From the NCBI GenBank assembly GCA_036785375.1, contig JAWMAR010000551.1, positions 372,001-436,000 of the forward strand: DNA of 64,000 bases, written 5' to 3'. The notes under the pieces were generated by a model that was given only the letters and a program-made list of their open reading frames with translations, was not told the DNA's origin and did no database searches. This document shows positions 32,915 through 63,803 of this stretch, piece after piece. This stretch comes from Leucoraja ocellata. Lineage: Eukaryota. Within the stretch, counting starts at the first letter, position 1. The number at the start of each line of letters is the position of its first letter. A program made the position numbers and the translations under genes.

Positions 32915-33757
32915 TCTATAAAAGTGTGTTTTTTTGTGTTTTTTGGTGTTTTTTATGTGGGGGAAGAGGGCACGGTGCGGGGGATACCGTCCTTCAGCCG
33001 CTTCCTGGTGAGGACGCGACTATTATTCGAGTCGCGTCCTCCCCCCCCCCCCTCCCCCCACAGCGGCCTACCTACCTGGATTGGCGCGGCCTTTCCTGCC
33101 GGGATCGACCGGAGCTCCAGCAGCGGCGGGACAGCGCTGGAACATCGCGGGGCTGGTGATGCCTTACCGGGGGTCGCCGTTTGGAGCCCGGAGTGCTGGA
33201 CCTGCTGCACCAACATCACGGAGCTGCGGTTTGCAGAGCTCCCAACGCGGGCGGCGCTGACTAATCAACGCGGGGTCCTGCGACTCTGCCCGGCTCGGCC
33301 TGCGGACTCAGGAGCTGCAGACTCCGGCAGCGGGAGGCGGCTGATCAGGAGGTCCGGGCCGCTGAGGAGGAGGATGCTCACCGTCGGGGTTCGGCGTCGG
33401 CGTTCCACCAGCCCGGCGTGAGGGCCTGAACATCGGGCCACCCGGGGCGGCGACTGCGGGTGCTTGGAAGGCCCCGACCACGGATGAACACGGAGGGGAG
33501 GCTGGCTGGACTATGGTGCCGTCCTCACCTGGGTGCCATTTATGTTATGTTGTGTCGTGGACTTCTGTATTTGTGCTTTTTTTTTAAAATTTTAATTCAA
33601 TTTCAATTTTATTTTTAATATGTTTTATTATTTCTTTATTATTTATTTTTATAATTTCTTTGTGATTTTTTTTAATGATACTGCCTGTAAGGAAAATTCA
33701 TTTCGTTGTCTCAAATTGAGACAATGACAATAAATTTGAATACAATACAATACAATA
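32915..33757 (+). mobile_element. GC-rich non-coding retroposon-like element, copy 1 (Rex-like tail)
   Basis: T-rich lead, GGGGGATAC, 12-bp hairpin at 33010-33041, GCGGCCTACC. The 3' end is CATTTCGTTGTCTC...GAGACAATGACAATAAA plus (TACAA)n. Confidence 0.65.
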
Positions 33758-34189
33758 ATTTATGGTGCACTGGTCAAATCAAATTAGAAGATGAACATCA
33801 TATTCATTCCGAATATGATGTTCATTCATGAATATGATGGAGATAATATGGGATTTATTTCAAAGATTTGATGCACGCTCCCAGAAACTAATTAAAATAC
33901 TTTGAAATCATTAAGACTAATCAAGACTGTACTTGCTCCCCACTACAAAGTCATATTGTGACGGGGCCAATAGATCACTCCCTGATCCAAGTGGCCATTC
34001 ATTTTAATTCACCTGGCCATCACCACTGTGATTGGTATCTATTGCTATCCCAGACAGCCCAATGTTACCTACTGATCAATGCTGTATGTTGCAGTTTCTT
34101 TGAACCTGAAACGTTAACTCTGTTTTTCTTTCACGAAGCGGAAACAGGCCCTTTGGCCCCACAATCTAACACTATCCTACATGCTAGAG

Positions 34190-34392
34190 ATGATTTACAA
34201 TTATGCCAAGCCAATTAACCTACAAACCTGTGCATCTTCGGAGTGTGGGTGGAAACCGGAGCACCCGGAGAAAACCCACACAAGTCATGGGGAAAACAGA
34301 CAAATCCGTACAGACAGCACCCCCTGTCAGAATCAAATCCAAGTCACTGTCTATGTAAGGCAGCAACTCCACCACTGCGCTGTTGTGTCGCC
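34190..34392 (-). mobile_element. HE1-like V-SINE (degenerate)
   Basis: Reverse complement of the V-domain: GGAAACCGGAGCACCCGGAGAAAACCCAC. Confidence 0.7.
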
Positions 34393-35899
34393 ATGAATCA
34401 GAGTGTGGAAACAGACCTTCGGCCCACCTCGTCCATGATGACAAAGATGCACATCTACACAAGTCTCATTTGCTCGTGTTTGACCCATATTCTCCTCACC
34501 TTTCTTATCCATTTAGCTGTCTAAACGCCCTTTAAAAGAGACATTGCTTGATTTGCGGAGTCTTTCTGGCATTTTAATTTTATTTCAGAACTCTGCAGTA
34601 TCTGCAGTTTTTTGATTTTCAATCACTGAACAATTATTTGCTGTGTATTTCATATAGGTAATGCAAGTGCTTTATTGAGGTCCTGCACCAGACTTAAAAA
34701 ATGTGTGCTGGCAGGCTAATTCACCATGGACGGTGTCACCACTCAGTCTGCTTATGATCCACAAAGGTGACACATTTTGATCTTCAGTGAGAGCTCTCCA
34801 GTGACTAAATGGAAAGAAGATGGAATCAGATGCACGTGCAATTCATCACCATCTGTCTGCTGCCCAGCTGAAGTTGAACATTCCCAGAAGAGATCATTTA
34901 AAAGCAATTTAAGAAAGTGAACTGTGGCTGATTTTTCATGGACTGATTTGTCCCCTTCCCCACCCAGAGGTGAGGATTCCTACAGTAAATCCTAGCACCA
35001 TTCCAGCTAATGATCAGAGAAATCAACACATCACCATATAACCATATAACAATTACAGCACGGAAACAGGCCATCTCGGCCCTACAAGTCCGTGCCGAAC
35101 AACTTTTTTCCCTTAGTCCCGCCTGCCTGCACTCATACCATAACCCTCCATTCCCTTCTCATCCATATGCCTATCCAATTTATTTTTAAATGATACCAAC
35201 GAACCTGCCTCCACCACTTCCACTGGAAGCTCATTCCACACCGCTACCACTCTGAGTAAAGAAGTTCCCCCTCATGTCACAGGTTGAGTTTAGACGGATG
35301 AGGCGGGGCCTCATTGAAACTTACCAAATAGTGCAAGGCCTGGATAGAGTGGATGTGGAGAGGATGTTTCCACTAGGGGGAAAGTCTTGGACCAGAAGCC
35401 AAAGCCTCAGAATAAAAGGACGCATGGTTGGAGAGGAGATGAGGAGAATTTCTTTAGTCAGAGGGTGGTGAATCTGTAGAATTTATTGCCATAGACTGCT
35501 GTGGAGGCCGTCAATTGATATTTTTAAGGCAGATTGACAGATTATTGGTTTGTACGGGTGTCAGAGGTTATGGGGAGAAGGCAGGAGAATGGGGTTCAGA
35601 AGGAAAGATAGACCAGCCATGATTGGATGGTGGAGTAGACTTGATGTGCTGAATGGCCCAATTCTGCTCCTATAATTTATGAACTTATGTATGGCCCTGT
35701 AGGTTCCATAGTTCAGATCCACCCCACATCTAGAATTCATCCACTGACGGAACCTAAAGTCATACCATCATTGCATTACAGAAATAGGAGCTTCTTCCCA
35801 CTGAACCGCAACGACCTTAAGGTGCCATCGAACCTAAACCTATTTTATTCTCTCACCGTCCCATTGATGCACAGACCAAGTTAAGGAAGGTACAGGAAA

Positions 35900-38125
35900 A
35901 TATCCATGATTGCTTGGAGTTAGTAGCTTGGGAGATATTCAAGGGCTCAGCAACAGACCTGAATGAATACATCACGATTGTTACCGACTTCATAAGGAAA
36001 TGTGTGGAGGAAAGTGTTTTCACCAACACCATCCATGTGTTCCCTAACCAGAAATCCTGGATGAACCAGGACGTTTACCATCAACAGTGGAACAGATCTT
36101 GGTCATTCAAGTCTGGCGATGCAGGTTCATGTAGGACATCCAGGTACATCCTCGATAAAGCCATCAGAAATGTGAAGAGACACTTTTGCTCCAAATTGCA
36201 GGATGAGACAGACATTTGGCAGCCGTGGCTGGGCTTGCACACCGTAACTTCCTACAAGGCAAAACCAAGTGGTGTACCTGGCCATGTTCTTAAAACCTGT
36301 ACGGAAGAACTGACTGGAGCCTATGTGGACATCTTCAAACCCTCATTACAAAGGTCTGAGGTTTCCCATTTGCCATGAATGGGCATCAATAATACTGGTG
36401 CCTAAGAAGAGTAAGGTGAGGCCAGTTCATTGGCTATATTTAAGAGGGAGTTGGATGTGGCCCTTGTGGCTAAAGGGATCAGGGGATATGGAGAGAAGGC
36501 AGGTACAGGATACCGAGTTGGATGATCAGCCATGACTGATCATCCTGAATGGCGGTGCAGGCTCGAAGGGCCGAATGGCCTACTCCTGCACCTATTTTCT
36601 ATGTTTCTATGTGACATGCCTCAATGACTCCAGACTGGTGGCACTACCAATCATGGTGATCAAGTGGTTGGTTATGGGGCACATCAACTCCTCCTACCTT
36701 AGCAAGAACCCTAGATCAACTATAAATTCCCCACTATCACAATAGATCAACGGGGATGCGATCTTGCTCTCTCCCCACTTTGCACTGGACCACTTGGATG
36801 ATAAGAACATATATGTCAGGCTGTTGTTTATTGACTACAGATCAGAATTCAACAGCATCATCCCCTCCATACTTCACATATATTACATTCATGGAACTGG
36901 GTCTTTGCTCATCCCTGTGCAACTGGATCCTTAACTTCCTCATCAGCAGACCATAATCAGTATGAATAGGCAACAACACTTCCTCCTCGTTAACCATCAG
37001 CAAAGGGGAACTTCAAGGATGTGTGCTAAGTGATCCAAAACTTAGTGGTTTTGCAGATAGTGAATATGGTGATGAAAGATTGCAGCAGGATCTGGATCAA
37101 TTGGCCAGGTTGGTTGATGCAATTTAATACAGAAACGTGTGTGGTGTTGCTTTTTGGGACGTCGAACAAGGGCAGGACCTATACAGTAAATGGTAGGCCT
37201 CTTGGTAATGTTGTAGAGCAGGGGGATCTCGTAGCAAGGTTCATTGAAAGTCGAGCGCAGGTGGATAAGGTGGCTTTTGGCACATTAGCCTTTATCAGTC
37301 AAGAGTATTGAGTATAGAAGTTGGGAGGTCATGTTGCAGTTGTGTAAGATGTTGGTGAGACCGCATTTAGAATATTGTGTTCAGTTCTGGGCACCATGTT
37401 ATAGGAAAGATATTGTCAAGCTTGAAAGGGTTCAGAAAAAATTTACGAGGATGTTGCCAGGACTAGCGGGTGTGAGCTATAGGGAGAGGTTGAGTAGTCT
37501 GGGTCTCTATTCCATGGAGCGCAGGAGGATGAGGGGAGAGCTTATAGAGATATGCAAAATCATGAGAAGAATAGATTGGGTAGGTGCACAGTCTTTTGCC
37601 CAGATTAGGGGAATCGAGGACCAGAGGATACAGGTTCAAGGTGAAGGAGAAAAGATTTAATAGGAATCCGAGGGGTAACTTTTTCACACAAAGCGTGATG
37701 GATCTATGGAACAAGCTGCCAGAGGAGGTAGTTGGGGCTGGGACTATCCCATCATTTAAGAAATAATTAGACAGGTACATGGGTAGGACAGGTTTGGAGG
37801 GAAATGGACCAAACGCAGGCAAGTGGCTCTAGTGTAGTTAGGACATTGTTGGCCGGTGTGGGTGACTTGAGCCGAAGGGCCTGTTTCCACTTTGTATCGC
37901 TCTTTGACTCTATGACTCTAAACCCCCTGTTCTACTCACTCTATGGACATGACTGTGTAAATTCACTGATGATACCACCGTTGTTGGATAAATTATGGGT
38001 AATGAGTCAGAGTATATGAGGGAGATTGATAATCACATTGAATTGTAACCCACACTTCTTCAGGATGTGAGAAGAAACCAGAGCACCTTGCTCTCAATGT
38101 CAACAAGATCAAGGAACTGATTGTA
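35900..38125 (+). mobile_element. Rex1/Babar-like LINE interrupted by two CR1 insertions
   Basis: VTDFIRKCVE...FPNQKSWM, ILVPKKSKV | VTCLND, LCNWILNFLISRP and QGCVL | PLFYSLY.HDC. The breaks are at about 36420-36611 and 37030-37920. Confidence 0.8.
37030..37920 (+). mobile_element. CR1-like LINE 3' portion
   Basis: LVRPHLEYCVQFWAPCYRKDIVKLERVQKKFTRMLPG; (TATGAC)-type tail. Confidence 0.9.
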
Positions 38126-39429
38126 GAAAGAAGTGCAGATTGTATTTATAAAATATATTTTCAGGGTCTGACTGTCACTGCTATGCCTGCATTTATTGCC
38201 AATCGTTATTTGGAGATTGCAACCTTCATGTGGTCCACCCTGTTTCGACTAATGCAATCAACCCGATGTGCACAAATAATTAGATCAAATAGAACAAGTT
38301 GACTTAAAACTTTAGGCTGTGCACGCCATACACAAGAAGAAGATTTGCCCCTGCGAATGTAATGGTGAGCATTATTGAACCACTGGAGTCCTCCAGTTTA
38401 ACATGTTTGCACAATATTAAGGGGACAGTTTCAGGATTTAGGCCCAACTATGATGAAGGACTGGTGATACATTTTCAAGTCAAATTTGTACCTCGGAGGG
38501 CAGCCTGAAAGAAATTGTGTTCCCATGCTTCCACTGCCCATATCCTTCTTGGTGGGAGAAGTACAACTACACCCAAGGGGAAAAATAAGGTAGAAGATAC
38601 AGACATTTATGGAGAGAATTCCAGTAATACAGTTATAGAAATAAACAGCACTATCCATCAACTACCCATTTTCATTCATCTTACATTAATCCCATTTTTG
38701 ATTCTCCCTAAAATTCCCCCCAAACACCCCCAAAATTGTATTACTCACCTATACACTCAGGGCTATTTACAGTGGTCAATTAACCTACCAACCCACACTT
38801 CTTCAGGATGTGAGAAGAAGCCAGAGCACCTGAACAAACTGCAATTGGTCACAGGGAGAGCACACAAAGTCCACGCAGACTGCACTTGAGGACTGGATTG
38901 AAACTGGTCTCCGACACTATGGAATGATGGCTCCTTTAGTTGAACACAATATTAAAAGTGGGCAGCGTTGTTTCTCTGGTTCCTAGAAACATTAAAACAA
39001 TATTCTCAGTCTTTAGCCCAATTTCTTTCTCCAAAGCATGGAAGAAAAGTTATATTTCTTATTATAAATATACTGTAGGCACACGTTCATTTCAAAATTA
39101 CATTTGGTGGAATGACAGACATATTATCCGTTTCACTGGAGCAACAGAGGTCACTTAATAATAACAACTCAACAATACCCCTTTGACCCACTAATTATAT
39201 CCCATTTCTCTAAAGCACCACGGGCTGCGAGAAACTTTATTAATTTTATTAATAGAAACAATTAACTCTTTTGGGATGGAGGCACGTGCCCCGAAAGAGC
39301 TTGCGCCACACGCAATGCCTTCTGTGGTCGTCCAGTGCGTTCCCATAATTTTGTCTGGATTTAAGGAGGTGCCAGACCATCAGTTGCCAGAATATTGGTG
39401 ATGGACCTGTATAAGGTTTTTGAATTGAC

Positions 39430-40160
39430 CCAGTCCCGTTATCCGAGTTTGGACCATATCCCTCTAAATCTTTCCTATCCAAGTCCCTTAAATGTTGCCA
39501 TTGTATCTGCAGCTACAGCTTACTCTGGTAGTTACTTCCTTATGCACATCACCCACTGCATGGAATAATTTACTCCTCAGGCCACTTTTAAATCTTTTCC
39601 CTCACACCATAAACCTATGCCCTCTAGTTCTGAACTCCTCTACTCTGGGAAAAAGATGTGACCATTCACTTTATCTATGCCACTAATGATTTTGTATACC
39701 TCTGTAAGGTCACCCCTTACCCCTTTACACTCTAAAGTCCCAGTTTACTCAGCCACTCCTTATAAATCAATCCCTTGAGTTCTGGTAACATCCTGGTCAT
39801 TTTTTCTGCAACCTTTCCAGCTAATGATATAATTCCTTTAACAAAGCAGCCAGAAAAGTGCACAATACTCCTAGTGTAATCTCATCAACATTTGAACAGA
39901 TGTAGCATGACATCCCAGTTCCTGTACTCATACTCTTACTGGTGAAAGGAAGTGTACCAGATGCCTTCTTCACCACCCTGTCTACCCGAGTCACCATTAT
40001 CAGAGAACGGTGTGTCTATACATTCAGGTCTCCCTGGTCTACAACACTCCCCGGAGCCTTGCCAGTGTAAGTCCTGTCGTAGTTTGACTTATCAAAATGC
40101 ATCATCTTACACTTATCAGAGATAAATTCCATCTGCCATTGTTTGGCCCACTTCCTTTTA
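39430..40160 (-). mobile_element. Degenerate CR1 3' region
   Basis: Reverse-complement similarity to the other CR1 3' ends (CCATATCCCTCTAAA, AAACCTATGCCCTCTAG, CACAATACTCC). Confidence 0.7.
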
Positions 40161-40400
40161 ATAATACAAGTATGATAGGGAAAACAGCTAAAATGTATTC
40201 TGAAGTTTGCATACGTGGTTGTGGTTTATACTGGTCTGCCTGCTCCCACACCCACTTCTAGCAGCCTTCCCTTCCATGAGGAAGACTGCCTCACCTGAAA
40301 GAACAGTCAGGATTCCTGGACATAGTCGAGAGAGCAGGTGTTGTATCTCCTGCGGATGCAGGGGAACCTGTATCCCCCTTTCCTCTTTTCCCTGAATCTC

Positions 40401-40436
40401 AGTCTGAAGAAGGGTCTCGACCCGAAACGTCACCTA
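40401..40436 (+). ncRNA. Minimal hammerhead ribozyme motif in a PLE terminal repeat (best-preserved copy)
   Basis: CTGAAGA (40404-40410), A, stem II GGGTC-tc-GACCC, GAAAC, then GTC as the candidate cleavage triplet (40429-40431). Stem III is reduced to palindromic ACGT. Confidence 0.6.
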
Positions 40437-40999
40437 TTCCTTTTCTCCAGTGATGCTGCCTGTCTCGCTGAGTTACTCCAGCCTTTTATGTCTGTCTTCG
40501 GTTTAAACAAGCATCTACATTTTCTCCCTAAACATTTTCTCCCTAAACATTTCATACAGAGACGTTCGCAAATTCTGTCTACACACACTTACACGGTGAT
40601 GAAAGGAGTGATGGCAGATAGTAACGCCTTTCACAGGGAGTGTGTGCATTCAAAAGGGATTAATTTTCAACTAACATTAATGTCAGTACTAAAACTGACA
40701 TTGGACTTTCGCCGCTGTTACACACATGCACAGGTTCCTGAATTCTGACTCGGGGTAACGAGAAAAGAAAGGCACTACTGAGTTCCCTCATATGCGTGGA
40801 ACCTTTTCGAACTAAGAGGAAGTATAACATGTGACTCGCAAATGCACTGGTGCTAGGCATTACGTACACCCCGCAGAGTAAAACTTCCTCCATGCATTCA
40901 GGGAAGTTAGGCTGTGAAGTTGTCAGCAAAAGTGCCGTGAACTTTGCTATAGGTGCTCCGGGCAGCGGAGGACGGTCCATCCCGGGCCGGACAGTGGGT

Positions 41000-41119
41000 C
41001 ACCCCGTCCCCTATCACTCACCTGTCCCCTGTCACTCACCTGTCCCCTGTCACTCACCTGTGTCCTATCAGTCACCTGTGTCCTATCAGTCACCTGTCCC
41101 CTATCACTCACCTGTCCCT
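41000..41119. repeat. 18-bp minisatellite (~6.7 units) upstream of the SLC46-like exon
   Basis: Unit TCACCTGT(C/G)(C/T)CCT(A/G)TCA(C/G). Confidence 0.9.
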
Positions 41120-41239
41120 CCCCCAGCTCCATTTACCCGTGGCCCGATGCAGGGACTGGCTGCAGGTGGCTTCCAACACCCACCTTGCCCTCGCCCTCGC
41201 CCTCGCCCTCGCCCTCGCTGGACACTTTAAAGCGTTGGA

Positions 41240-41341
41240 ATGAATCTGAGGACCATCATCACAGTGGAACCCGTGATGTTTCTGTACCTGATGGCGACCT
41301 TTCTCAACACATTCGCTATGCAGCAGTTAGTGTTGGTTAAG
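41240..41341 (+). CDS. First coding exon of an SLC46-family (proton-coupled folate transporter-like) MFS transporter
   Basis: MNLRTIITVEPVMFLYLMATFLNTFAMQQLVLVK contains the VEP.xFL...Q transmembrane-1 signature of SLC46 proteins. It has an ATG at 41240, a strong donor AAG|GTGAGT at 41341/41342 (phase 0), and CpG-rich non-repeat context. It is too short for the ORF track, and the paralogue cannot be assigned. Confidence 0.8.
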
Positions 41342-42086
41342 GTGAGTCAGAAGCTGCCGCTCTTTTGGTCCGTGTGCTGGAGTTAGGTCAGTCTTATTCT
41401 TCGTTGGAAATATTTGCCAGTTTAACTAACACATTATTCCTCCAGTGACAGCCATCTGCAAACCGAGAATCATAACTACTTCCCCTAAAGTCCCCCGGTT
41501 ATTAGATGGTTAGGCGTGGCTTGTAACTACGTAGGTTTCAATATTCTTCCTCGCAGTACGTGACAGGTTTTTTTTTAAAGTGGAGTCAAATTTGTAGAAT
41601 AGGAGCAAGTTTGCAACAGTTCCACAAATGGTAGTTTTAACCAGCAAAATCTGTTCTTTTGCCTGAATATTTCTGAGGAATAAGCACTGAGCAAAAATCA
41701 AATTGCTGGAGGAACTCAGCGGGTCAGGCAGCATCTGCTGAGGCCGAATGATGGTTAACGTTTCCAGTCGAGATCCTGCAAGAAGAATAAGCATGCGCAG
41801 GACTCTGTGAATAACTACACAGAAGGAACTGCAGATGCTGGAATCTTGAGTGAAACACAAAGTACTGGAGTGACTCAGCAGGATAATAATAATAACAATG
41901 GATGGGATTTATATAGCGCCTTTCTAGATACTCAAGGCGCTTTACATCGCAGGCAGCATATATAGAGGGATAGGGGACTGTTTTCAGAATCAGTCTGAAG
42001 AAAAGTAACCAACTAGAAAGGTTGCCAGTCCATTTATCTCCACAAATGCTGACTGACCCGCTGAGTTACTCCAGCGATTTCTGTTT

Positions 42087-43397: not shown

Positions 43398-43794
43398 CTG
43401 TTTTGTTCTGGGAATAACTATCTGTTGTATTCTCATGTTTAGAAACTATATGGTTGTGATATTCAAATAAGTATATGACGTAATGACATCATGAGATCAA
43501 GAGCGGGAGTAGAACAGAGGCCATTTTTAGTTGGAAATTATTAAACGAGAACTACCACATAAAATGCTGTTCTCTGTTCATGATTTTATACACGGATTTC
43601 AAAACACCAAAAGATAACGGTGGCAGGTGTTATGATTCTTATGATGACCCATAAGTGCTGAACATGCTTTCACCAGTTACTGAGGACTCAAAGTTTCAAT
43701 ATTAGATTGACTGTTTTGTTGCTAGATGCCTGTGAAAACAAGTGAACAAACATACTATAGACTTAAACGTGTATAAAGAACAGATTCAATTTTT

Positions 43795-43903
43795 TTTATA
43801 TATATATATATATATATACACAAAGAACAGATTCAATTATATATATCTATCTATATCTATTATATATATCTATCTATATAGATATAGATATAGATATAGA
43901 TAT

Positions 43904-43948
<45 letters not shown>

Positions 43949-44107: not shown

Positions 44108-44650
44108 TCGGGTGCCGCTGCACGATGGCAACCTCACCAACAGGAAGTTTCATCGTTTTCTTCTTTTGTTGTTTTTAGTTTGCTGTTAATGTATGTTTTA
44201 TTGTATCTTTAGTTTTGTATTATGTGAGGGGTGGGGGAAACTTTTAAAATCTCTTTCCTCGACGGAGATGCGACTTTTTCCGTATCATATCTCCGTCCGC
44301 ACGGCGGCCTAACATCCTGGAGCTGGTGGTCCCTTTGTCAGGGATCGACTTCGGGAGCTCCAACCGCCTGAGCTTTGACCTCCCCGATCGCGGGACCTTC
44401 GATCTCCCCGATGCAGGAGCATAGATTGCCGGCTGCGGGAGCATCGATTGCCCCAACTGCGGATGGTTTGACTGCCCGACCACGGCAGAAAAGGAGGGAA
44501 GAAGATAATACTTTATGTTTATGTTAATTTTTATGTAGTTGTGTGGCTTGATGCTTATTTGATATGACTGTATAGCAAATCAAATTCCTTGTATGCTCTT
44601 ACATACTTGGCTAATACATTCTTTGTATATTGTATCATGTATCTTGTATT
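44108..44650 (+). mobile_element. GC-rich non-coding retroposon-like element, copy 2
   Basis: GGGGGAAAC, hairpin at 44261-44297, GCGGCCTAACA and ~22-bp GGGAGC..CGA..GCCCC repeats. The tail is AAATTCCTTGTATG...CATACTTGGCTAATA plus (TTGTA)n. Confidence 0.6.
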
Positions 44651-47501: not shown

Positions 47502-49316
47502 TGTGATGTATTTGTAATGTACCATCATTGAATGTATTAGAATGGAATTTGTGATGTATATGTAATGTAATATCAAATGTAAATGCCAGTGCCCCTTGAG
47601 GCCAAAACCAGAAGCTGGTAAATGTACCTGTGCCTCGTGACTGAGGTCAAGTGACCTTCTGGAAGTTTTCTTTTTCTTTTTCTGCTCCTTTCCCATCTCC
47701 TTTGCAGTTTCCCGACTGTCACTTTTTTTTTCCGGTGGCCGTTATGGTCGCGCGGTCGCTGGCTCCAATCTTTGGGCTTGGGTGGTGGTCCGGGGCAGCA
47801 CGGTGGCAGCCGAACTCACCCAGCAGGTCTAAAAGCCCCCTACAGCGGGGCACAGTCTCGACGAGCCGAGCAGCGGGACCAGCAGCAGAGACGAGCCGTG
47901 GAACCAACAACGAGCCGAGCAGCAGGACACAGTCTCGACAGGCGGAACAGCGGGGCCTAGCAGCAGCCAGGCGGGCTGTGGAGACAGCAACATGCGCTGC
48001 ACCAGGAGACGGAGAGAAGGTAGCCTTCCGTGATGACCCGAGGCTTCTCCCAGAGGGAGTAATGGCCGCCGCCATGTTCGGTTCAAGCAGTTGTTTTAAA
48101 CTATATCACGAATCGAACCATAACTTGTTGTCCTAATTGATCGGTTGGTAGTGTAATACACGTTGTAATAAAACAAAACTACATTTGAACCCTGGTTTGC
48201 CAGCACCCAGTGCTACTTTTTGGTCTGTAATATATATTCTGAATTTCATAGCGAAGAAACGCTGCAATTTATTTTTCCCCTTGTGCTGTACACTTTGATG
48301 ACTTTTTTTACAAGCATCCTTATCCAGAAGAATAAGTAAAGCATGTAGTGTTGAATGTGCATGTTTTCATACAGTTGAGGGCATAATATTAATGCAGAAT
48401 TGTATTTTCTTACCTTGGAGAAGTCAGTGAAGTTAACTAGGGCTGCGGAAAATGAAATGCCAGTGAATGTACAGACTTTTACTCTCATATCTGGGGTGAC
48501 TATATTCCTAGTCAATATTTCATCTGTACAAAAGATTGCTGCAGTTTTTTTTTCTCTCAGCAAAGCCAAACTTAGTTTTGTGTCTGTTTTTTGTAATTCA
48601 ACAGTTTCAATAAATTCTTTTTTATATACAAAAGAAATTGAAAGAACAAAAATAGTTTGTATTGGCTGTTTAGTATTGACTATGTTTTTTTGTTTGAAGG
48701 GGGAGTCCGCCTCCTAGATGGAGCAAGTCTACGAGACCAGGCAGAGAGTTAGTCCAGGATAGAGCCCTGTAGCCCAGGATAGAGCCCTATAGCCGTGGAT
48801 AGACCCCTGAGTAGCTGTGGATAGGCCACCTGTAGCTAGTCTCCCAGAGGTGAGAAACCTGGACAGAGGAGCCAGTCTCCCAGAAGCCAGAAAGAGTCTC
48901 CCAGAAGGGGCAAGTCCCCAGAAGACATGATGCGGAGAGATGCAGCAAGAGGCAGGAGCCAGTCTCCCAGTCACAGCAAAAGGCAACAAGACAGGCCCTT
49001 GTTAAGAGTTTCTAGAGTTTGAGGTTAAAGTGAAAAAACGGCAGCACTCTTAATTGAGTCTAGTGTAACTCCTTATGTGGATATTAGGGGGAGATGTGAT
49101 GTAATTAAAGTTAGGGGGAGATGTGATGTAATTAAAGTGAAGGGGGAGATGTGATGTATTTGTAATGTCCTATCATTGAATATATTAGAATGGAATTTGT
49201 GATGTATATGTAATGTAATATCTGATGTAAATGCCAGTGCCCCTTGAGGCCAAAAGCAGAAGCTGGTAAATGTACCTGTGCCTCGTGACTGAGGTTAAGT
49301 GACCTTCTGGAAGTTT
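47502..49316 (+). mobile_element. Non-autonomous or deleted LTR element
   Basis: 167-bp direct repeats starting TGTGATGTA (47502-47668 and 49150-49316). A polypurine tract AGGGGGAGA lies immediately before the second copy; the 3' LTR appears truncated and no TSD was found. Confidence 0.7.
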
Positions 49317-50677: not shown

Positions 50678-50859
50678 TTTACTATAAAACGAGAAAACAT
50701 TCTGTGTGCGTGTGTTTTTTAATCATCTTAGTGACCTTAGGATAAGAGCATGTTCGGACCTGTGAGGGTCCATCAGTCAAGCCCACTTCTGGCTAATTGC
50801 TTTGGTAACGTTTGATTAAAAATTCAAAGCCATCACAGAACATATCATCCTTCCCTGGG

Positions 50860-51400
50860 TGTAGCGTGTCGGCAGCGTGTCCGTCTTTTTTCAACTTTTA
50901 AATTTTTTTTAGTATGTTTAAAAGTCTGTTTTTAATGTTTCTTTCTGTATTTTGTGTGGGGGGGGGTGAGGGGGAAACCGTTTCGGCCGCCTCCTCCACG
51001 GAGAGGCGACTTTTTCCAGGTCGCCTCTCCCGTGGCCTAACAGCAAGGATCGGCGCGGCCTTTCCCGGAGACGCGCCCGGGGCTTCAACGTCGGGTGCAG
51101 CGTGGACTCTCGGCGTGGAGTGGGTGAGACCTCGCTGGGGCTCGCTGGAGGGGAGTGCTCCACTTCGCTGGCCCGCGGCAGCCGGCAGCCTGAAGCAGCG
51201 GTCTGCAGAACTCCAGCTGGTGCGGCGTCTACAGCCCGGGATCCCTCGTGGAGGACCCGGGGGGAAGAAGAAGCTTCCACCGCTGGCCCGCGGCCGTCTT
51301 CTACCGCGGGCGAGGTATGGACTTACCATCTACCCTGGAGGGGAGCTTCGACTGCCGGCCCTGCAGACTGCGGTGCTTCCGGCTGCGGCACGGCAGGTAC
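50860..51400 (+). mobile_element. GC-rich non-coding retroposon-like element, copy 3 (3' end cut by a CR1 fragment at ~51400-51575)
   Basis: GGGGGAAAC, 11-bp hairpin at 51000-51030, GGCCTAACA, GGCGCGGCCTTTCC. Confidence 0.6.
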
Positions 51401-51889
51401 TTTAGCCACAAGGGCCACATCTAACTCCCTCTTAAATATAGCCAATGAACTGGCCTCAACTACCTTCTATGGCAGAGAGTTCCAGAGATTCACCACTCTC
51501 TGTGTGAAAAAAGTTTTTCTCATCTCGGTCCTAAAGGATTTTCCCTCTATCCTTAAACTGTGACCCCTTGTCCTGGATGGGCCGGAGTTGGGCCGGAGTT
51601 GGGCCGATATCCATGCTGTGTGACTATGACTCTTTGAACAAAAATTCCTTCATTAATTACTGTTTGATTGTATTGAATATATTTCTATTTCCAAGGACAA
51701 CCACTAAAAGATGTCCTTTTTGTCATGTTCCGTCGCTGTTTCTATTTGCTCCATTTATTGTTTTATTGGCAGCCACGAGCTTTCTATAATGCTTTAAGGT
51801 TATGCTTTTATCTTTCTGGAATTGGGTCCAAAGGTGTGGAGACCGCCAGGTTTACAAACTCATAATCTAGCTTGTGTAATACCTTGCTT

Positions 51890-53150: not shown

Positions 53151-53427
53151 ACTTTCAGGGTGTCACAAAGTTGGTGATGTAGTGTGAAGAACAGTTATTG
53201 TTTTTAATAAAGGAAAGAAAGAGGCTAATTTGCAAATGGCAGACTTTCGCTGGTAGTGACCAGAAACATAGGTTCAGGGTGAAATGTTGATCAGGACACT
53301 GGATTTTTTTCAACTCAGGTCAAGGCGATCTTTTATTCTTTGTTTTAAAGTATAATTTGAGAGGGGAACATAATTAAAAGAAACTCAATGTCAGAACAAC
53401 TCTTAAAAGTATGTGCATAGAGAGAGT

Positions 53428-53429
<2 letters not shown>

Positions 53430-53462
<33 letters not shown>

Positions 53463-54330
53463 ATTTAATTGTCATTTGGATCCCTAGAGGTCCAAACGAA
53501 ATGCCGTTTCTGCAGCCATACATTACACACAAATAGACCCAGACACAACATAATTACATTTTACATAAACATCCATCACATAGCTGTGATGGAAGGCCAA
53601 AAAAAAAACTTATCTCTCCACTGCACTCTCCCCCCCCCGATGTCAGAGTCAAAGTCAAAGCCCCCGGCTGGCGATGGCGATTGTCCCGCGGCCATTGAAG
53701 CCACGCCGGGTGGTGCGAGGTCGCACACCGGGTCTTGGTGTTGGAGCCCCCGGTGTGCGCTCGCAAAGTCCCGCGGCCATTCCAGCCGCGCGGGGCGGTG
53801 TAGTGAGGCCCCGCTCCAGGAGCTCTTCAACCCCGCAACACGGGCGGGAGAATTCGCCGTTGCAGGAGCCCCGAAAAGCGGTATCTCTCCAGGGATCCGC
53901 GGGCTCCCGGCGCCGCTGTCCGCAGACCCGCAGTAGCAGCCTCCGACTCAGCAGCGGCATCGGCAGCAGCAGCAGCAGCAGCAGCAGCGGCAGCAGCAGC
54001 AGCAGCGCTCCTCCACCGCTCCAACCGCTCCGGACTCGGCCAGCCCCGCGACGGCGACGGTGAGTAGCACCAGAGTCCCCGGCTTCTTCCTGTTGGAGGC
54101 CGCTCCTCGTTGCGGCCCCAACGACAACGGAAACCCGACGAGAAAAAAATCGGGTCTCCAGTGCAGGGAGAGATTTAAAAAGTTTCCCCCCCCCTCCCAC
54201 CCCACCCCCACCCCCCCACACACACACCCCAACAAAAAATAACAAAAACTACATTAAAACACAGACAGAAAATAATAAAAACGCGGACAGACTGCAGAGG
54301 CCGCTGCTGGCCAGAGCCGCGCCGCCTACC
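53430..54330 (-). mobile_element. GC-rich non-coding retroposon-like element, copy 4, with an internal (CAG)n tract
   Basis: On the minus strand: GGGGGAAAC, hairpin at 54129-54159, and tail CATTTCGTTTGGACC...GATCCAAATGACAATTAAA plus (CT)n. The (CAG)n tract is at about 53950-54006. Confidence 0.6.
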
Positions 54331-55619
54331 GGGCATAGCAATCTGTGGTGTGAATTTGTGGAATGGTCTGGAACAGGAGATAAAACTTAGCACAAGCATA
54401 ATTCAGTTTAAAAAGATGTACAAAAACACTTGCTTAAAAGGATATTAGGATGAGGATAGGTGATTGTGAGTGGGATATTTGTTATACTGATTGTATTGGG
54501 AAGGGTGATTATAGAGTGATGGGTTGTATATGTGACTAAGATAAGTCCCGCAGGCGCGGGCACACCGCGACGCCCTGTGTCTCCCTTTCAAGGGAGATGC
54601 TAAAAATGCATTTCGTTGTCTCTGTACTGTACACTGACAATGACAATAAATTGAATCATTTCATTTCATTTTTTCATACTGTATAGTATAAGGGTTTTTT
54701 CTTTTCTTTTTCTTTTTTTCTTTTTTGTGTGGCTTTGTAAATATTTGATTAGTGTATAAATGTAAATAATTTGGTGTATATATAGTGGCTGGTGTACATA
54801 TGGTGTACATATAGCTGCTAAATTTGAATAAGATAATTACAAGCAGTTGAATAAGGGGGTGGGAATTAATAAGCTTTGGCTTCTTCCTGCTCCTTTTCGG
54901 ACACATACGATTTCATTTATTTATAGATATTGTTTATGACACTTTATAAATATTCTTGTTTTGTTTTTTTGTCTGCTTTTTATTCTTTTATTCTGTTCGA
55001 AATAAATAATAAAAAAAATAAAAATAAATTAAAAAAGTCTCAACCAAAAGATGGCCCCTTTGACAGTGCAACACCTCCTGAGTAGCCCTTCAAAACCGTA
55101 GTATAGTGACACTTGTCTTTTGTGCTTAGATCAACCTCAGATGCAAGAGAAATCTGAAGACATGACATTCTGACTTTTAGTTAAGAGTGCCACCCTCCGA
55201 AACCCAGCCATATGCTCAACATGAAGGCAATTCTAATGAATGGAAATACCCAGTAGGTCAGGCAGCATCCATGGAAAGTGAGACAGTTACCATTTTAGTC
55301 TGGAACCTTTCATTAGGACAGGAAAGAATGAAAACAAGTTACTTTTCAGCCGCAGATAAGGTGATATTTCTGAGCCAATCTGTGGCCACTACGCAACCCA
55401 ATTGGACAAGTTTGCTTTAAGGCAATTACTTAGCCATCTTACCCTTTCCCTATGGACCCCAACCCTCTCCTGTGGCATCACACTTTGATTCATACTCAAT
55501 TTAGTACAAACCATCCTCTACATTGTACTTTAGTGAAAACTATTTGAAAGTCCATACTTCCACTGCAGTTCCTTTATCATAACTGTTCATAAATTCATAA
55601 ACTTCTTATGTGGAGCTCG

Positions 55620-58600
55620 GAGAAGCAACAAGCAGAAGCAGAGAGAAGAGACTATTGGTTTGAAAGTCCATGAGAAAGAAAGTGAGTGACAGGGAAAGAC
55701 AGTTTAAAAAGAGCGCCAAGACCCAGGTTCAGGTAATTTACTAATTGGCCCTAAAGTATTTAATTAGGTAAGAGATTAAAAACATGTGCAGTTGTAGCTG
55801 AGCGGCCTTGGTGAGGTGAAGTGCCTTGGTGAGTAAAGTGTGAGTGTTTGGCTCAAGAGTCTTCGGTGAGGAGGCTGAGGCAAGAAGGCTACACTTGATC
55901 GAAATTTGTGATTTTTGCCCACTGAAGCAATGGCAGGCAAGTTGGTGCAGTGTGTTTCCTGCAGGATGTGGGAAGTCAGGAACACTGCTGGAAACCACAC
56001 CTGCGGAAATTGTGTCCAGGTGCAGCTCCTGAATAAACATGTTGGGGAACTGGAGCAGCAGTTGAATGACCTCGGGGCCATCAGGGAAAATGAGAATTTC
56101 CTGGACAGGACCTACAGTGAGGTTGTCACACCAAGGATACAGGAACAGCGAAGATGGATGACTGTGAGAAAGAGGAGTAAACGTGGAGTGCGGGAGACTC
56201 CGGTGGCTGTACCTACTGAAAACAGGTACACCCTCTTGGAAGCGGAGGACGACGAGATTGAGTGGTAGCCAGGGCTGTGATTCCAACCCTGGTGCTGAGG
56301 CTCAACGGGGAAGAATGACGTCAAGCAGAGCCGTAGTGGTGGGAGACGCCATCGTCAGAGGTGGGGATCGGAGATTCTGCAGCAGCAGGCGAGACTCCAG
56401 GCTGGTGTGTTGCCTTCCTGGTGCCAGGGTCCAGGACGTCTCGGAGAGGCTGCACGATATCCTCAAGAATGAGGGGGAGCAGACAGAGGTTGTTGTGCAT
56501 GTTGGCACGAATGATATAGGTCGGAAGAGGAAGGAGGTTCTGCAACAAGATTCTATGGAATTGGGCAGAAGATTGAAAAGCAGGACCTGCAGGGTAATGA
56601 TCTCAGGATTGCTTCCAGTACTTTGTGCTAGTGAAGATGAGAATAGGAAGATAGAGGATATGAATGTGTGGATGAGGAGTTGGTGCACGGGACTGGGATT
56701 CAGATTTCTGGATCATTGGGATCGCTTCTGGGCCAGGGGTGATCTATATAAAAGGGACGGGCTGCACCTAACCTGGAGTGGGATAAATATCCTAGTGGAA
56801 AGGTTTGCAAATGCTACATGGGAGGGTTTAAACTAGATTGGCAGGGGGTGGGATCTCATGCAGGACAGAGGCACAGGAGAGACTAGAAGTCGGTATGGAG
56901 GGTGGTGTGGGAAAGGTTAATGGACAAAATAGGCAAAAAGCCGGAGAGCGAGGAAGGAGAGTTGGTTTAAACTGCACGTATTTTAATGCAAGGGGCTTGT
57001 CGGGTAAGGCAGATGAGCTTCGGGCGTGGATGGGTACGAGCGACTGGGACGTTGTAGCAATCACTGAAACCTGGTTTAGGGAGGGGCAGGACTGGCAGCT
57101 CAATGTTCCGGGGTACAGGAGCTTCAGGAGAGGCACGGGTGAGGACAAAAGTGGATGGGGAGTTGCATTGTTGGTTGAGGAGGATGTTACGGCTGTGTTC
57201 GGAGGTGATATTACGGACGGTTTGTCTAGTGAGGCTATATGGGTGGAGCTGAGGAACAAGAAAGGGATGATCACCTTGTTGGGGGTGTACTACAGACCCC
57301 CAAATAGTCAATGGGAATTAGAAAAGTAAATGTGCCGGGAGATTGCAGACAGCTGCAGGTCTACTAAGGTTGTTGTAGTAGAGGATTTCAACTTTCCCAA
57401 TCTAGACTGAGAAAATCATAGCGTGAAGGGTTTAGATGGGGTGCAATTCTTCAAAGATGTTCAGGAGAGTTTTCTTAAGCAGTATGTGGCGGCCCCCACA
57501 CGTGAGAGGGCAACGCTGGATCTAGTATTGGGAAATTGGGAAGGGCAAGTTAGGTGAAGTGTGTGTGGAGGAGCCTTTTGGGACCAGTGACCACAGTTCG
57601 ATTAGGTTTAAGATAATGATGGATCGGGATGGAGAGGGTCCACGTGCTGAAATGCTCAACTGGGGTAAGGCCATCTTTGAGGGTATGAGAGAAGGTCTAG
57701 CTCAAGTTGACTGGAGCAAGTTATTTGAGGGGAAAGGAACATCGGCCAAGTGGGATGTTTTTAAAAGTGTTCGGAGGAGGGCTCAGGATATGTACATCCC
57801 CGTTAGAGTGAAGGGCAAAGCAGGCAAATGTAAGGAAGCTTGGCTGACGAGGGATATAGAGGCATTGGTTAAGAATTAAAAGGACGCATGGGACGTATAG
57901 ACAGCTGGGATCAAGCGCATCCCTGGAGGAGTTGTGGGAACTAAGGAGCAAACTAAAAAAGATCAGAAATTATCATTGGTATCATTTAAAAATAAATTGG
58001 ATAGGCATATTGATGAGAAGGGAATGGAGGGTTATGGTATGAGTGCAGGCAGGTGGGACTAAGGGTAAAAAAAAAAAAAAAATGTGTTCGGCACGGACTT
58101 GTAGGGCCGAGATGGCCTGTTTCCGTGCTGTAATTGTTATATGGTTATATGGTTATAAGTGCAAAAAGGGGCCAGGAGATAGTTCTGGCGGGTTGCATAA
58201 AAGACAATCCCAAAAGATTTTATAAATACATTGGGGAGAAAAGGGTAACTTGAGAGAGAGTGGGACCTCTCAGGAATAAAAGAGGTCACCTCTGTGTGGA
58301 GCCACAGGAGATGGGCAAAGTCCTCGGTGAATATTTCTGTGTATTTACCGAGGAGAAAGAAAGTAAGACGGAGAAAATTGGAGCAGTCGCTGGAAGTGTC
58401 ATGAGAGCAGTCAGTGTTACCGTCAACGAAGTACTGAAGGTACTGTGGTAGAAGGTAGACAAATCTCCAGGGCCTGATCTGACATATCCGAGGACATTGG
58501 GGGAAACTAGAGAGGAAATTACGGGAGCCCTGGTTGAAATTTATGAATCGTCCTTACAGGAGACGTGCCAGAGGATTGGAGGGTGGCAAATATTGTGCCT

Positions 58601-60013
58601 CTTTTCAAGAAGAGCTGCAGGGAAAATGCTGGGAACTATAGGCCGGTGAGCTTAACATCTGTAGTTGGTAAGTTACTGGAGAGTATTCTGAGGGATAGGA
58701 TATACAGGCATTTGGATGGGCAAGGGCTGATTAGGGTCAGTCAGCATGGTTTTGTACATGTGAGGTCGTCTCCCACAAATCTGATTGATTTATTTGAAGA
58801 TGTGACCAAAAAGGTTGATGAGGGCAGAGCTGTCGATGTTGTGTACATGGCTTTTAGTAAGGCATTCGTCAAGGTGCCACATGGTAGGCTGCTCTGGAAG
58901 GTTAGATCTCATGGGATCCAAGGAGAGATAGCTGAATGGATATCAAATTGGCACCATAGAAGGAAGCAGTTGGAAGGTGGTGGAAGGTTGCTTCTCAGAC
59001 TGGAGGTCTGTGACTAGTGGTGTGCCTCAGGGTTCTGTGGAAGGCATGTTACTGTTTGTCATCTACATCAATGTTTTGGATGAGAACATACAGGGCAAGA
59101 TTAGCAAGTTTGCTGATGATACAAAGTTAGTGGTTTTGCAGATAGTGAAGATCGTTGTCCACGATTGCAGCAGGATCTGGATCGATTGGCCAGGTGGGCA
59201 GAGGATTGGTTGATGGAATTTAATACAGAGATATGTGAGGTGTTACATTTTGGGACGTCGAACAAAGGCAGGACCTAAACAATAAATGATAGGCCTCTGG
59301 GTAGTGTTGTAGAGCAGCGGGATCTAGGTGTGCAAGTACATGATTCTATGAAGGTCGAGTCGCAGGTTGATAAGTTGGTCAAAAAGGCTTTTGGCACTTT
59401 GGCCTTCATCAGTTAGAGTATTGAATATAGAAGTTGGGAGATCATGTTGCAGTTCTATAAGATGGTGAGACCACATTTAGAATATTGTGTTCAGATTTGG
59501 GCACCATGTTATAGGAAAGATATTGTCAATCTTGAAAGGGTTCAGAAAAGATTTATGAGGATGTTGCCAGGACTAGAGGGTGTGAGCTATAGGGAGAGGT
59601 TGAGTAGGCTGGGTCTCTATTCCATGGAATGCAGGAGGATGAGGGGAAATCTTATAGAGGTATACAAAATCATGAGAGGAATAGATCGGATAGATGCACT
59701 TTTACCCAGAGTAGGGAAATTGAGGACCAGAGGATAAAGGTGAAGGGGAAACAATTTAAAAGGAATCTGAGAGGTAACTTTTTCACACACAGGGTTGTGG
59801 GTGTATGGAACAAGCTGCCAGAGGAGATAGTTGAGGCTAGGACTATCCCATCATTTAAGAAGCAGTTGGACAAGTACATGGATAGGACAGGTTTGGAGGG
59901 TTATGGACCAAGCACAGACAAGTGGGACTAGGGTAGCTGGGACAATGTTGGCCGGTGTGGGTGATTTGGGCCGAAGGGCCTGTTTCCCACACTGTATTAA
60001 TCTATGACTATGA
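55620..60013 (+). mobile_element. Near full-length, inactivated CR1-clade (HER1-like) LINE
   Basis: ORF1 has a CxxC..CxxC finger (VQCVSCRMWE...TCGNC), a zipper and an SGNH esterase (VVGDAIVR, HVGTNDI, DGLHL). ORF2 has APE (YFNARGL, ITETW, VYYRPP) and RT ([23 protein letters not shown]). Multiple stops and frameshifts; a short CR1 tail is inserted at about 57980-58157. Confidence 0.93.
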
Positions 60014-61279
60014 CATAGGAGTGGAAATAGTAATTTTGGCTCATCGAGTCTACTACGCCATTCAATTATGGCTGATCTATGTTTCCCTCTCACCCTCCTT
60101 CTCACCGTAACTTGAGATCCTTACTAATCAAGAACCTGCCGATCCCTGTTTTAAAAATACCCAATGACTTGGCCTCCACAGCCGTCTGTGGCAATGAATT
60201 TGTGTGAGTGGTTAGGATCTGGAATACACATCCAGAAGTAGCAGAGGAGACGGATTCAATTGTAATGTTTGAAAGGGAGCTGGGTAAATAGCTGAGGATT
60301 AAAAAACATCAAAGCTTTGGGGAGAAGATGGAACGACGGGACCAACTGAAATGCTCTTACGGAGTGAGTACCAGTATGAATTTGATCGTCCAAATGGCCT
60401 TTTTCGTTGCTCTGATACCAGCTCAAGGGCCGAGTAGGATATTTAGTGGCTCGAGTGATTCAGCCACTTGCTATGTCTCATCCATGACTTATGCGTGCAC
60501 AATCAGTATTGCAGCATTTAAACTAATTTAGGTGGAAGACTAAACTTCAACATCCAGTCATATTTGGAGATCCACAGGGTAAACAGCTACACACAATGAA
60601 ATGAAAACGGATCAGATTTAATATGAATTCCCCAAATTACCCAGTCAGTTATAGAAGTTTAGTTTGTTTTTAATGGATGTCTCCCTTTTAAATATTCTAA
60701 GTAATTAATTACTATTCACACAAAAAATACAAATCTGGGGGCAATTTAAGGCTGCTTGATTACTTTGAGACCGATATTCCTTAAAACACAGATGCTCTTT
60801 GTATTACGGACAGATTCCTATTCCCTGCACTTCCATGTGTCTATCTAAAAGAAGAAAATATGCATACATCAGTTAGATTTCTCACTTGTTGAAAATGTGA
60901 ATCAATTTATTCATTAAGGTTAGATAGGCTTTATTCGCTTTGCATGAGGTCTCCAGGAAGCATGAGACATCTCAGCAGTTTAAATCAAATACTAAACAAG
61001 TTTAATTGGGCTCATTACAGAAACCTTTCTTTGGTTTCAATGCAAGGATGGAAATCTGCTGGTATGGGGAGCTGGTGTCCATGAGGATGAGCAAAAACAT
61101 GAACTGAAGTAACCTCCGGTGAGAAAAGAGTGAAAGGTATGGGTGGAATGTGAACATTAATTTGTAATTCCTGAAAGTACCCACAGCCCCATTTCTAGTG
61201 ATACTATTTATAATCTGAAAGATTGTTACGGGCAAAGCAAATTGCAGTAATTCAGAACAATCATGAGAAAATATATTGA

Positions 61280-62400
61280 ATTGAAATAGTATAGTGGTGT
61301 GGGTTGAGTTTTGCTTAATAGATGGGATAGGGGGAGGAATCTGTTCTGGTCATGAAGCTATGACTAATGGGGTGCTGTGGGGAATGATGCTGGGGCCACG
61401 ACTATTATCAATCCACTTATTATTTATTTGGGATGGAAATTGTGTGCTACAAGTCTGATACAAAGCTAAGTTCTGATGAGGAGGCAGGGAAGTTTCAGGG
61501 CGATGATGTCTGGTGGATGAGGACTTGAGAGATGGAATGTGACAAGGAGATACATGAGCTCATCCACCTTGGTGACTCAAATAGGGAAATGGAATATTGT
61601 TTTTTAATTGTGAGAAATCAGAAGGTGTTGGCATTCAGAGGGAACTGGATGTCCTTGTGCACTAATCTCTGAAAGTTAACAGGCATGAATTGCAAGCAAT
61701 TAGAAAAGAAAATAGCAATTGAATCACAGAATTGTCTATCTATAAAGAACAAAAATAGGCCCTTCAGTCCAACTCATCCATGCTGACTAGGCTGGTGAAC
61801 TGAGCTTGTTCTTATATATGCCTGGCCCATATCCCTTCAAACCTTCCCTGTCCATGTATCTAATTTTTGTTTAATGTCATAATTGTAGATGCCTCAATCA
61901 CATCCTCTGGCAGCTTGTTCCATGTAGGCATCGCCTTCTGTTGAGAGCACACTTGAATATTTGTAAGATTTGTTCCTCAACCTGAGTGCTATGGAGGCTA
62001 ACCACATTGATTACTAAAATGCCAGATTTAATGTTTGTAGAGGAAATAAGCACACAGCGCTTATGCTTATTTGAGTTTAGGTGATCTAATTGAAATATGC
62101 AAAATTCATCTGGTATTTGACAGGGAAGCCTTGGAGGTGATGTGTCTATGAGGTGTGCTGTATATAGACAATGGTCACACCATCATTATAATAGGTTGAC
62201 TATTCTGGAGAAGAGATGCCCACCCTGAGGGTAGTGAACCTTTGGACCTCCCTATCCAAGAGGACTATGCACACTCAATTCGGAACCAGGGATATTAAGG
62301 GAAAGAGGGGATATGGGACGAGTGCAGGAAAGTGGGGCTGAGATAAAAAATTAACCATCTGCTTGTTGAATGGCGGGGCGGAATGCTGTACTATTGCTCC
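61280..62400 (+). mobile_element. Highly decayed CR1 RT/3' remnants
   Basis: TGACTAATGGGGTGCTG...TGCTGGGGCC (decayed GVPQGSVLGP), GGTGATCTAATTGAAA and GGGGATATGGG..TGCAGGAAAGTGG. Confidence 0.55.
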
Positions 62401-62839
62401 TAAACCTTATGATGTACGGCCTTGGATGAATGCAAAGTAAAGATCAAAAAAAGATCTGTAAATCGCATCTCACAGAAATACTGTTTTATTCACAGAACCT
62501 GTTGTGAAAAGCAATTAAAACAATGTAATTTTTTGAAACAAAATAATGAGAATTGTTCTATTCTTGCACCTGATGATGTAGTGCTTTGAAAAGCCTCATA
62601 ATTGCTGTTGCATTGAATGGAGATAACAAACTTTTATTGACCCATTACTTGTTCAGCAAAAATCACATTATGCAGATAAACAGCCTGTTTTTTCTTTGTT
62701 TTTATTATTTTCCATTCTGGAAATCCACAAATTAAATTTCTTTATGCTCACCTGATTTTGGAGGATGCGAAAGTGCTGGAGAGGGTGCAGTAAAGATTCA
62801 CACAAAGGGTTGTGGTGCTGAGAGATTTCACTTCATCAG

Positions 62840-63803
62840 GAGGAGGAGCCATCCTGGGGAACGTCTGCTAATCAGCAGCTGTCCGTTCAATTCACTTTTT
62901 TAAAATTATTTTTTAGTGAATTTTGTCCTATGTTTGTTGGGGAATTTGACTTTTTTATGTGGGGGCGTGAAGGGGGAAACTATTTTCTAGGTCCCTACCT
63001 GGTCGGTGAGGCAGCTTTTTCCCCGGGCTGCACCGTCGACCCGTCCTTGCGGCCTACCAGCGGGAGTGGAGCGGCGTTTTCCTGGCGGGGACCGCCCAGC
63101 ACCTTCAGCTTCGGTGGCAGCACAGCGCTGGAGCGCTATCGCGGAGCGGAGCGGGCGATGCCTTGCCTAGTTCGCGGCGCTAGGTCGCCGCGCTGGAGCT
63201 CCGGTATGCTGAGACCGCCGTGATCAACATCATCGAGCTGCAGGACTGTGTAGCAGCCAGCCGCCTGAGCCTCGGAGCACCAACCGGCGCGGCCCTATCG
63301 GCTTCGGAATGCCACAGACTCCGATAGGGAATCAGCCGTCCCAGCCGTCCCAGCCGCTGTGAGGACTCTCCCGACGCCGGAGCAACACCACCCGGCGAGA
63401 ACGGCCAGGAACATTGGGCCTCCGTAGAGGCAACTGTGGAGGCCTCAATAGGCCTGACTATGGGAGATCTGGGGATGGGGACTGGACATTGTGCCTTCCC
63501 CCACAGTGGTAACCATTGTGGGGGGATTTTGTTTTGTGTGTAAATGATTATTTTATTCTGTGTCCAAGATGGCTGCCAGAAGGGAGAGTGTACGCTGGCG
63601 CGCTTTAGCTGCCGCTGCTCTCTCTTCATATTGTGTTTTTGATTTTTGTCTTTGGATTGAATTCTGTCTTTAATTTGTGTACTGGTGATGTCTTTACTAT
63701 TTATTTCATTCCGCTTACATGTTTTTCTCTATTTGCTAAATTTTATAAGGTGTCCTTGAGACTCTTGAAAGGCGCCCATAAATAAAATTTATTATTATTA
63801 TTA
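62840..63803 (+). mobile_element. GC-rich non-coding retroposon-like element, copy 5 (L2-like tail)
   Basis: GGGGGAAAC, hairpin at 63001-63041, GCGGCCTACCA. It ends TAAGGTGTCCTTGAG...GAAAGGCGCCCATAAATAAAA plus (TTA)n; continuity of head and tail is inferred. Confidence 0.55.

Follow-up and report, generated by a model that had tools for sequence, protein, structure and literature searches.

Five GC-rich elements in a 64,000-nucleotide stretch of the genome of Leucoraja ocellata (contig JAWMAR010000551.1, positions 372,001 to 436,000; hereafter the window) raise the question of what class of element they represent, and why each carries a hairpin of different sequence in the same place. A first-pass annotation, made from the letters alone, had described them as a non-tRNA family resembling short interspersed nuclear elements (SINEs), with a stem kept by compensatory change, and its account of their parts was borne out. 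The word GGGGGA(A/T)AC, here called the anchor, is present in all five copies, and GGCCTA(A/C)C in all except copy 4; the stems fold where they had been placed, with 11–13 bp and −14.7 to −23.1 kcal/mol (ViennaRNA); and the five modules are 50–68% identical pairwise. We conclude that these elements probably derive from Rex1 long interspersed nuclear elements (LINEs), lack an open reading frame (ORF), are putatively transcribed by RNA polymerase II (Pol II) and mobilized in trans, and carry an RNA domain under selection. Assignment to the class of ORF-less, LINE-derived retroposons is very probable.

Folded individually, the modules of copies 1 to 5 have z scores of −3.85, −2.34, −3.92, −3.54, and +0.17 relative to dinucleotide shuffles, so that the fold of copy 5 alone is not beyond chance. 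For comparison across lineages, 30 representatives, hand-picked from 58 clusters with intact ones favoured, were aligned by sequence alone. RNAalifold predicts the same helix from this alignment; 88.7% of the 354 cells of the 12-pair helix are paired, compared with 37–50% in slid-register controls, and double changes occur in 8 of the 12 pairs. Because shuffles ignore kinship, columns were also simulated independently on a tree from the non-stem columns (3000 runs). The alignment contains 846 doubly changed, still-paired sequence pairs, far above this tree-aware null (mean 129, maximum 348), and p<0.012 was obtained for 7 of 13 stem pairs. The covariation spans one continuous 12–14 bp helix. 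On the sense strand, GU/UG cells outnumber AC/CA cells 43 to 16, though these cells are not independent (12 of the 43 lie at a single pair), and the sense-strand hairpin is more stable than the antisense one in 27 of 30 lineages. Together, the pairing tests and the strand bias favour selection on RNA and support the earlier proposal of a non-tRNA, SINE-like family with a stem kept by compensatory change.

Pairing between the anchor and the hairpin loop is possible in every lineage but one. The family of copy 1 is the one amplified lineage with the anchor GATAC, and the complementary loop change is also present; by our own reading it accounts for 92 of the 100 matches listed out of 1,917, and about 90 of those 92 keep the A. 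The gain is small (−2.9 versus −1.1 kcal/mol) and represents a single lineage event, and two other regions pair just as well with the anchor, so an anchor-loop pseudoknot is a doubtful candidate, mentioned as a lead only. Two further features were considered and rejected. A helix between the G-run and a pyrimidine tract 5' of the hairpin forms in all five folds but does not covary (own −13.0 versus swapped −13.6 kcal/mol, p 0.94), and a G-quadruplex motif is present in only two of the five families.

A search of the 3.44 Gb genome places each copy in its own multi-copy family (4344, 7052, 5215, 3737, and 7770 first-look candidates for copies 1 to 5, with 40 scored per search), and the five families are lineages of one superfamily. 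When the 20–30 best matches for each family are aligned, the 5' starts are sharp and the 3' ends fixed, with differing microsatellites after them; family lengths are about 0.55–1.0 kb. A strict pattern (anchor, GGDGA, and GGCCTAMC, with pairing not specified) has 9,810 exact matches against 2 in the reversed control. A hidden Markov model (HMM) of the module finds 23 matches in 1.2 Mb of unselected genome, 7 of which also satisfy the strict pattern, and none in the reversed sequence; scaling from such samples gives a superfamily of roughly 30,000–65,000 copies. The 58 clusters were formed at 86% identity from 184 near-full modules, and many are single decayed copies. A more divergent lineage, missed by the HMM, occurs at locus L214 (9083–9990, +), head-to-head with another member; its anchor is altered and its stem is different yet paired. 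At locus L233 (3975–4473), two partial modules oppose each other within an element that has long inverted ends, which seems to be a retroposon captured in a DNA element resembling miniature inverted-repeat transposable elements (MITEs).

Of 36 matches to the 3' module, 17 have the 5' module upstream, 15 do not, and 4 lie at an edge; among the 15, one carries a complete module of diverged sequence, and another breaks inside the module. A fixed 3' end, a simple-repeat tail, and variable 5' truncation constitute the signature of a non-long-terminal-repeat retroposon inserted by target-primed reverse transcription, and the elements display all three. Target site duplications of at least 6 nt, a few of them 10–12 nt, accompany 16 of 47 copies in a loose search with no chance control, and are inconsistent. 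As 5'-truncated insertions exist, the hairpin is not needed for the insertion step itself, and selection would act on source copies. None of the seven open frames scanned over the elements matches Pfam, and the longest stop-free frames are 95–197 codons.

The ends point to LINEs. Rex1 elements were collected through Pfam PF09004, with reverse transcriptase (RT) confirmed for the one at locus L142; a GATGGC word and a T-rich stretch mark the start of their ORFs, which lies at the 5' end. Seven of 14 element heads match one of six Rex1 5' ends at p≤0.05, the best being that of the copy 2 family (20 of 21 positions). In four Rex1 elements (L141, L142, L143, and L236), the T-rich tract encodes a hydrophobic, signal-peptide-like ORF start, and the copy 2 family retains an ATG and a 17-codon frame. 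Most tails follow the Rex1 arrangement of a stem-loop, AATAAA, and a microsatellite, and those of the copy 1, 2, and 4 families score above shuffles against Rex1-associated tails (for copy 1, 36 against a shuffle maximum of 25). The tail of the copy 5 family instead matches the 3' untranslated region (UTR) of an RT-bearing L2 element in locus L278, with 90% identity across 168 nt (E 7e-60). The first-pass annotation had no name for the family, which holds only in part, as the ends can be assigned to Rex1 and, in some lineages, to L2; it had overlooked the LINE-type tails, the Rex1-like heads, and the second hairpin that precedes the tail.

The history of the tails was read from a tree of 36 rows built on the module and the body that follows it, with tails labelled manually and two loci left out (L249, with a disrupted tail, and L258, the same locus as L163). 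The L2-tail label changes three times on this tree, forced by well-supported branches; a single L2-tail clade is rejected (approximately unbiased test, p-AU 4e-53), and the three L2 tails differ from one another in sequence. L2 tails were thus captured about three times. The tail region of copy 5 also holds a CAAGATGG segment (window 63565–63640, +), presumably YY1-like, which lies in another upstream context in 2 of 12 fetched copies. It was rejected as a free mini-element, since 0 of the 12 begin there. An isolated L2-like tail with no RT match upstream is present at window 41887–41946 (−).

Directly before the tail lies the second hairpin, for which a regular expression gives 114 matches in all DNA examined, 20 in the unselected 1.2 Mb, and none in reversed sequence. 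Among 22 representatives it is 97.7% paired, with pairing partly imposed by the expression, and 2 of 12 pairs are doubly changed. The evidence for this hairpin is weaker than for the first.

Several observations weigh against a Rex1 derivative with a selected RNA domain. The other 7 of the 14 heads, including those of copies 1 and 5, have no significant match to the six Rex1 5' ends, the tail of the copy 3 family scores below its shuffles (17 versus 22), and BLASTN finds no Rex1 3' UTR that matches any family tail at length. In none of 20 long Rex1 loci is the 5' module part of the LINE, and the 3' hairpin is present in none of 98 Rex1 C-terminal loci. More generally, the Rex1 and L2 copies sampled, a limited set of LINEs, contain neither the body nor either hairpin, so the origin of the body is not traced to them. 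The young family of copy 1 lacks a canonical 3' hairpin. In a raw G-test, one stem pair ranks first and is the sole one in the top 20, the others being phylogenetic correlations; support for covariation therefore rests on the pairing-specific tests, and the non-independence of the wobble cells counts on the same side. Copy 1 or part of it occurs in 20 runs from 10 studies, all as contigs, and in five runs guessed to be RNA 38–44% of its words are found, likewise in contigs only.

If the elements are nonetheless ORF-less Rex1 derivatives, the Rex1-derived head would start transcription by Pol II. The absence of tRNA A and B boxes claimed earlier was upheld, as Rfam and ARAGORN return nothing relevant to a small-RNA head with RNA polymerase III (Pol III) boxes, and none of the five families has an A box, with a lone B-like word in copy 5. 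The missing A box and the early T runs (5–7 runs of at least 4 T in each of the five families), which would stop Pol III, are the reason for proposing Pol II. The tail stem-loop would be recognized by Rex1 or L2 reverse transcriptase, leading to mobilization in trans; in other LINEs, the tail is known to be recognized stringently (sections of PMC3747384). The hairpin and its invariant flanking words may bind a putative host or LINE protein, and once bound would help the non-coding RNA persist and encounter the enzyme, with selection probably acting in the few source copies. This role in ribonucleoprotein assembly or RNA stability and survival is the least certain step, and we propose it tentatively.

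The module could act at transcription instead, either as a TAR-like (trans-activation response) hairpin in the nascent RNA or as a DNA element located past the internal promoter, and so boost the Pol II output of source copies. It lies about 130–200 nt past the 5' end in all lineages viewed, the bodies keep a CpG observed/expected ratio of 0.9–1.2 at about 70% GC, and there are words in the heads that we take to be YY1/ETS-like and G-runs that we take to resemble Sp/KLF boxes. However, compensatory pairing would be superfluous in a double-stranded DNA site, and the sense-strand bias fits RNA, while not separating nascent from mature transcripts; we consider this unlikely. It is more improbable still that mutation bias, and not selection, maintains the hairpin, through template switching or through correction of quasi-palindromes as the sequence is reverse-transcribed or replicated. 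In favour of this reading, the stems are long and near-perfect, retroposons often switch templates, as in the tail swaps, and the adjacent G-run:pyrimidine helix does not covary; against it, lineage-fixed G-U wobbles and internal mismatches persist in the stem, the wobbles favour the sense strand, and the unpaired anchor and the GGCCTA motif are near-invariant.

Nor do we think it likely that the module is a plain 5' UTR remnant of an unsampled autonomous LINE, which would make these ordinary bipartite derivatives, perhaps already in Dfam or Repbase. The sample comprised six 5' ends of Rex1 and none of L2, and one Rex1 element (L287, 9109–9628, −) has an unusual GC-rich, tandemly repeated 5' region. 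That region was rejected as the source of the body, having no BLAST match to any element body; the Rex1 heads examined run directly into the ORF, and the module matches inspected either were truncated or reached a terminal LINE tail within about 1 kb. Least probable by far is a self-cleaving ribozyme of known or new class, which the first-pass annotation had entertained. The word GGCCTAAC resembles what we take to be the J4/2 word of the hepatitis delta virus (HDV) ribozyme, and anchor-loop pairing is possible in most lineages, as described above. Against this, an HDV-like fold, defined as a nested double pseudoknot with a 3-bp P3, P1.1, and a catalytic C, is found in none of the five families or 30 lineages (by a loose descriptor, unchecked on a known ribozyme), the hammerhead core CTGA.GA, expected upstream of GAAA, is absent within −150/+200 nt of the anchor in all five families, and Rfam yields nothing relevant at gathering or E-value thresholds. 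Furthermore, the covariation runs along one uninterrupted helix, and the elements begin at the head, well upstream of the module. An ORF-less Rex1 derivative with a selected RNA domain remains our preferred explanation.

Among known systems, SVA/LAVA are composite GC-rich non-coding retroposons with a variable repeat body, and the Alu domain, whose structured RNA helps in capturing a LINE enzyme, provides a functional model. Unlike these, the present elements show no similarity to Alu or signal recognition particle RNA in Rfam, and they end in stem-loop and microsatellite tails instead of poly(A). They resemble bipartite non-autonomous LINEs in combining a LINE 5' end with a LINE 3' tail, in having no ORF, and in presumed Pol II transcription and trans-mobilization; tail exchange is known in such elements. 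In the sections of PMC5786205 consulted, ORF-less bipartite LINEs are reported from only four donor clades (RTE, Ingi, Vingi, and R2), whereas the donors here are Rex1 and L2. They differ further in a 400–800 nt body with two hairpins between the ends, unmatched in the LINEs sampled, and in tails that switch between two clades. A strict member of this group would consist of nothing but the two LINE ends joined by internal deletion, whereas the middle part here has no counterpart among the Rex1 and L2 copies sampled.

A conserved middle domain common to families with different LINE tails is also typical of the CORE, V, Deu, and Meta SINE superfamilies, as outlined in PMC5786205, with chondrichthyan examples in the elephant shark (sections of PMC5499810). 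Compared by description, the present elements differ in that they lack Pol III boxes and any head of the tRNA, 5S, or 7SL type, and that their domain is kept by pairing more than by sequence. The Sadhu retroposons of Arabidopsis are likewise about 900 nt, non-coding, and divided into divergent subfamilies, with a short 5' motif and pyrimidine tract, no Pol III boxes, and no known RNA head; however, they have a poly(A) end, 8–18 bp target site duplications, and low copy number, and the word hairpin is absent from PMC2848041; they are an analogue only, with no homology implied. CoeG-SINEs of the coelacanth, non-coding SINE-like inserts of 1.0–1.4 kb in a fish, are a candidate relative by description only (sections of PMC4255032). 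Rex1 coverage in rays is among the highest, according to parts of PMC13343379, and the sections of PMC6274825 consulted make no mention of non-autonomous Rex1. Our literature search, the scope of which excluded Dfam, Repbase, supplements, and most subscription papers, found no description of the family, which may be present unnamed in the repeat libraries of genome papers.

Coordinates of the five copies and their surroundings are given in Table 1. The family of copy 1 is young, its best matches being 97–99% identical, and alignment with them shows that copy 1 lacks about 75 nt of the family 5' head. The family of copy 2 is older (other copies are about 74–87% identical to it), and family alignment places the end of copy 2 near 44620, with the 3' hairpin lost. 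Copy 3 is missing about 330 nt from its 3' end and about 20 nt from its 5' end; its family, about 890 nt long, closes with a 3' hairpin, then a Rex1-like stem-loop, and finally (TATC)n. Copies 2, 3, and 5 recur with their flanks at 96–99% identity on another contig (L002, L052, and L092; G000:C137), probably as a segmental duplicate or uncollapsed haplotype. The genome is also rich in CR1-type repeats.

Table 1. Positions of the retroposon copies, their parts, and neighbouring features in the window
Feature	Position	Strand	Description
Copy 1	32919..33757	+	5'-truncated, young family; Rex1-type tail ending (AATAC)n
Copy 1 module	32979..33072	+	anchor GGGGGATAC 32979-32987; hairpin 33010-33041; GGCCTACC 33065-33072
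Copy 1 3' end	33691..33757	+	Rex1-type 3' stem-loop, AATAAA, microsatellite tail
Copy 2	44109..44620	+	older family; 3' hairpin deleted; Rex1-type tail
Copy 2 head	44109..44150	+	family majority matches 5' end of Rex1 element L236 20/21, ATG included
Copy 2 module	44233..44313	+	anchor 44233-44241; hairpin 44261-44297; GGCCTAAC 44306-44313
Copy 3	50855..51404	+	incomplete at both ends
Copy 3 module	50970..51041	+	anchor 50970-50978; hairpin ~50997-51034; GGCCTAAC 51034-51041
Copy 4	53456..54332	-	full-length; Rex1-like head, CTG-repeat body, Rex1-type tail
Copy 4 module	54110..54190	-	anchor 54190-54182; hairpin 54159-54129
Copy 4 second (3') hairpin	53570..53597	-	z -3.31
Copy 5	62839..63806	+	full-length; L2-derived tail
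Copy 5 module	62972..63058	+	anchor 62972-62980; hairpin 63001-63041; GGCCTACC 63051-63058
Copy 5 second (3') hairpin	63496..63526	+	14 bp; z -4.79
Copy 5 L2 3' UTR tail	63640..63806	+	family majority 90% identical over 168 nt
MITE-like repeats	11087..11366 and 13650..13887		near-palindromic, 97-114 nt arms
Open frame	47645..48136	+	ends in plausible N-terminus; may be a host first exon
CR1 LINE	55741..60000	+	long; GDSL-esterase ORF1 (Pfam PF13472) and ORF2 fragments

With these elements, Rex1 joins the LINE clades that give rise to derivatives without an ORF; they also record repeated tail capture from L2. The origin of SINE middle domains has been called enigmatic (in the sections of PMC5786205 consulted), and the reason for their conservation is an open question, for which dozens of diverged lineages constitute a natural mutational scan that maps the selected helix. 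With young families (97–99% identical) and long Rex1 ORFs in the same genome, the role of such a domain is directly testable here. A bolder and rather less likely proposal is that the elements form a new Pol II SINE-like superfamily, in which the RNA domain (the hairpin and possible anchor-loop pseudoknot) serves as a general adaptor for hijacking LINE enzymes and is a functional counterpart of the Alu domain. If this is correct, it would explain both the approximately three moves between Rex1 and L2 machineries and the radiation into dozens of lineages.

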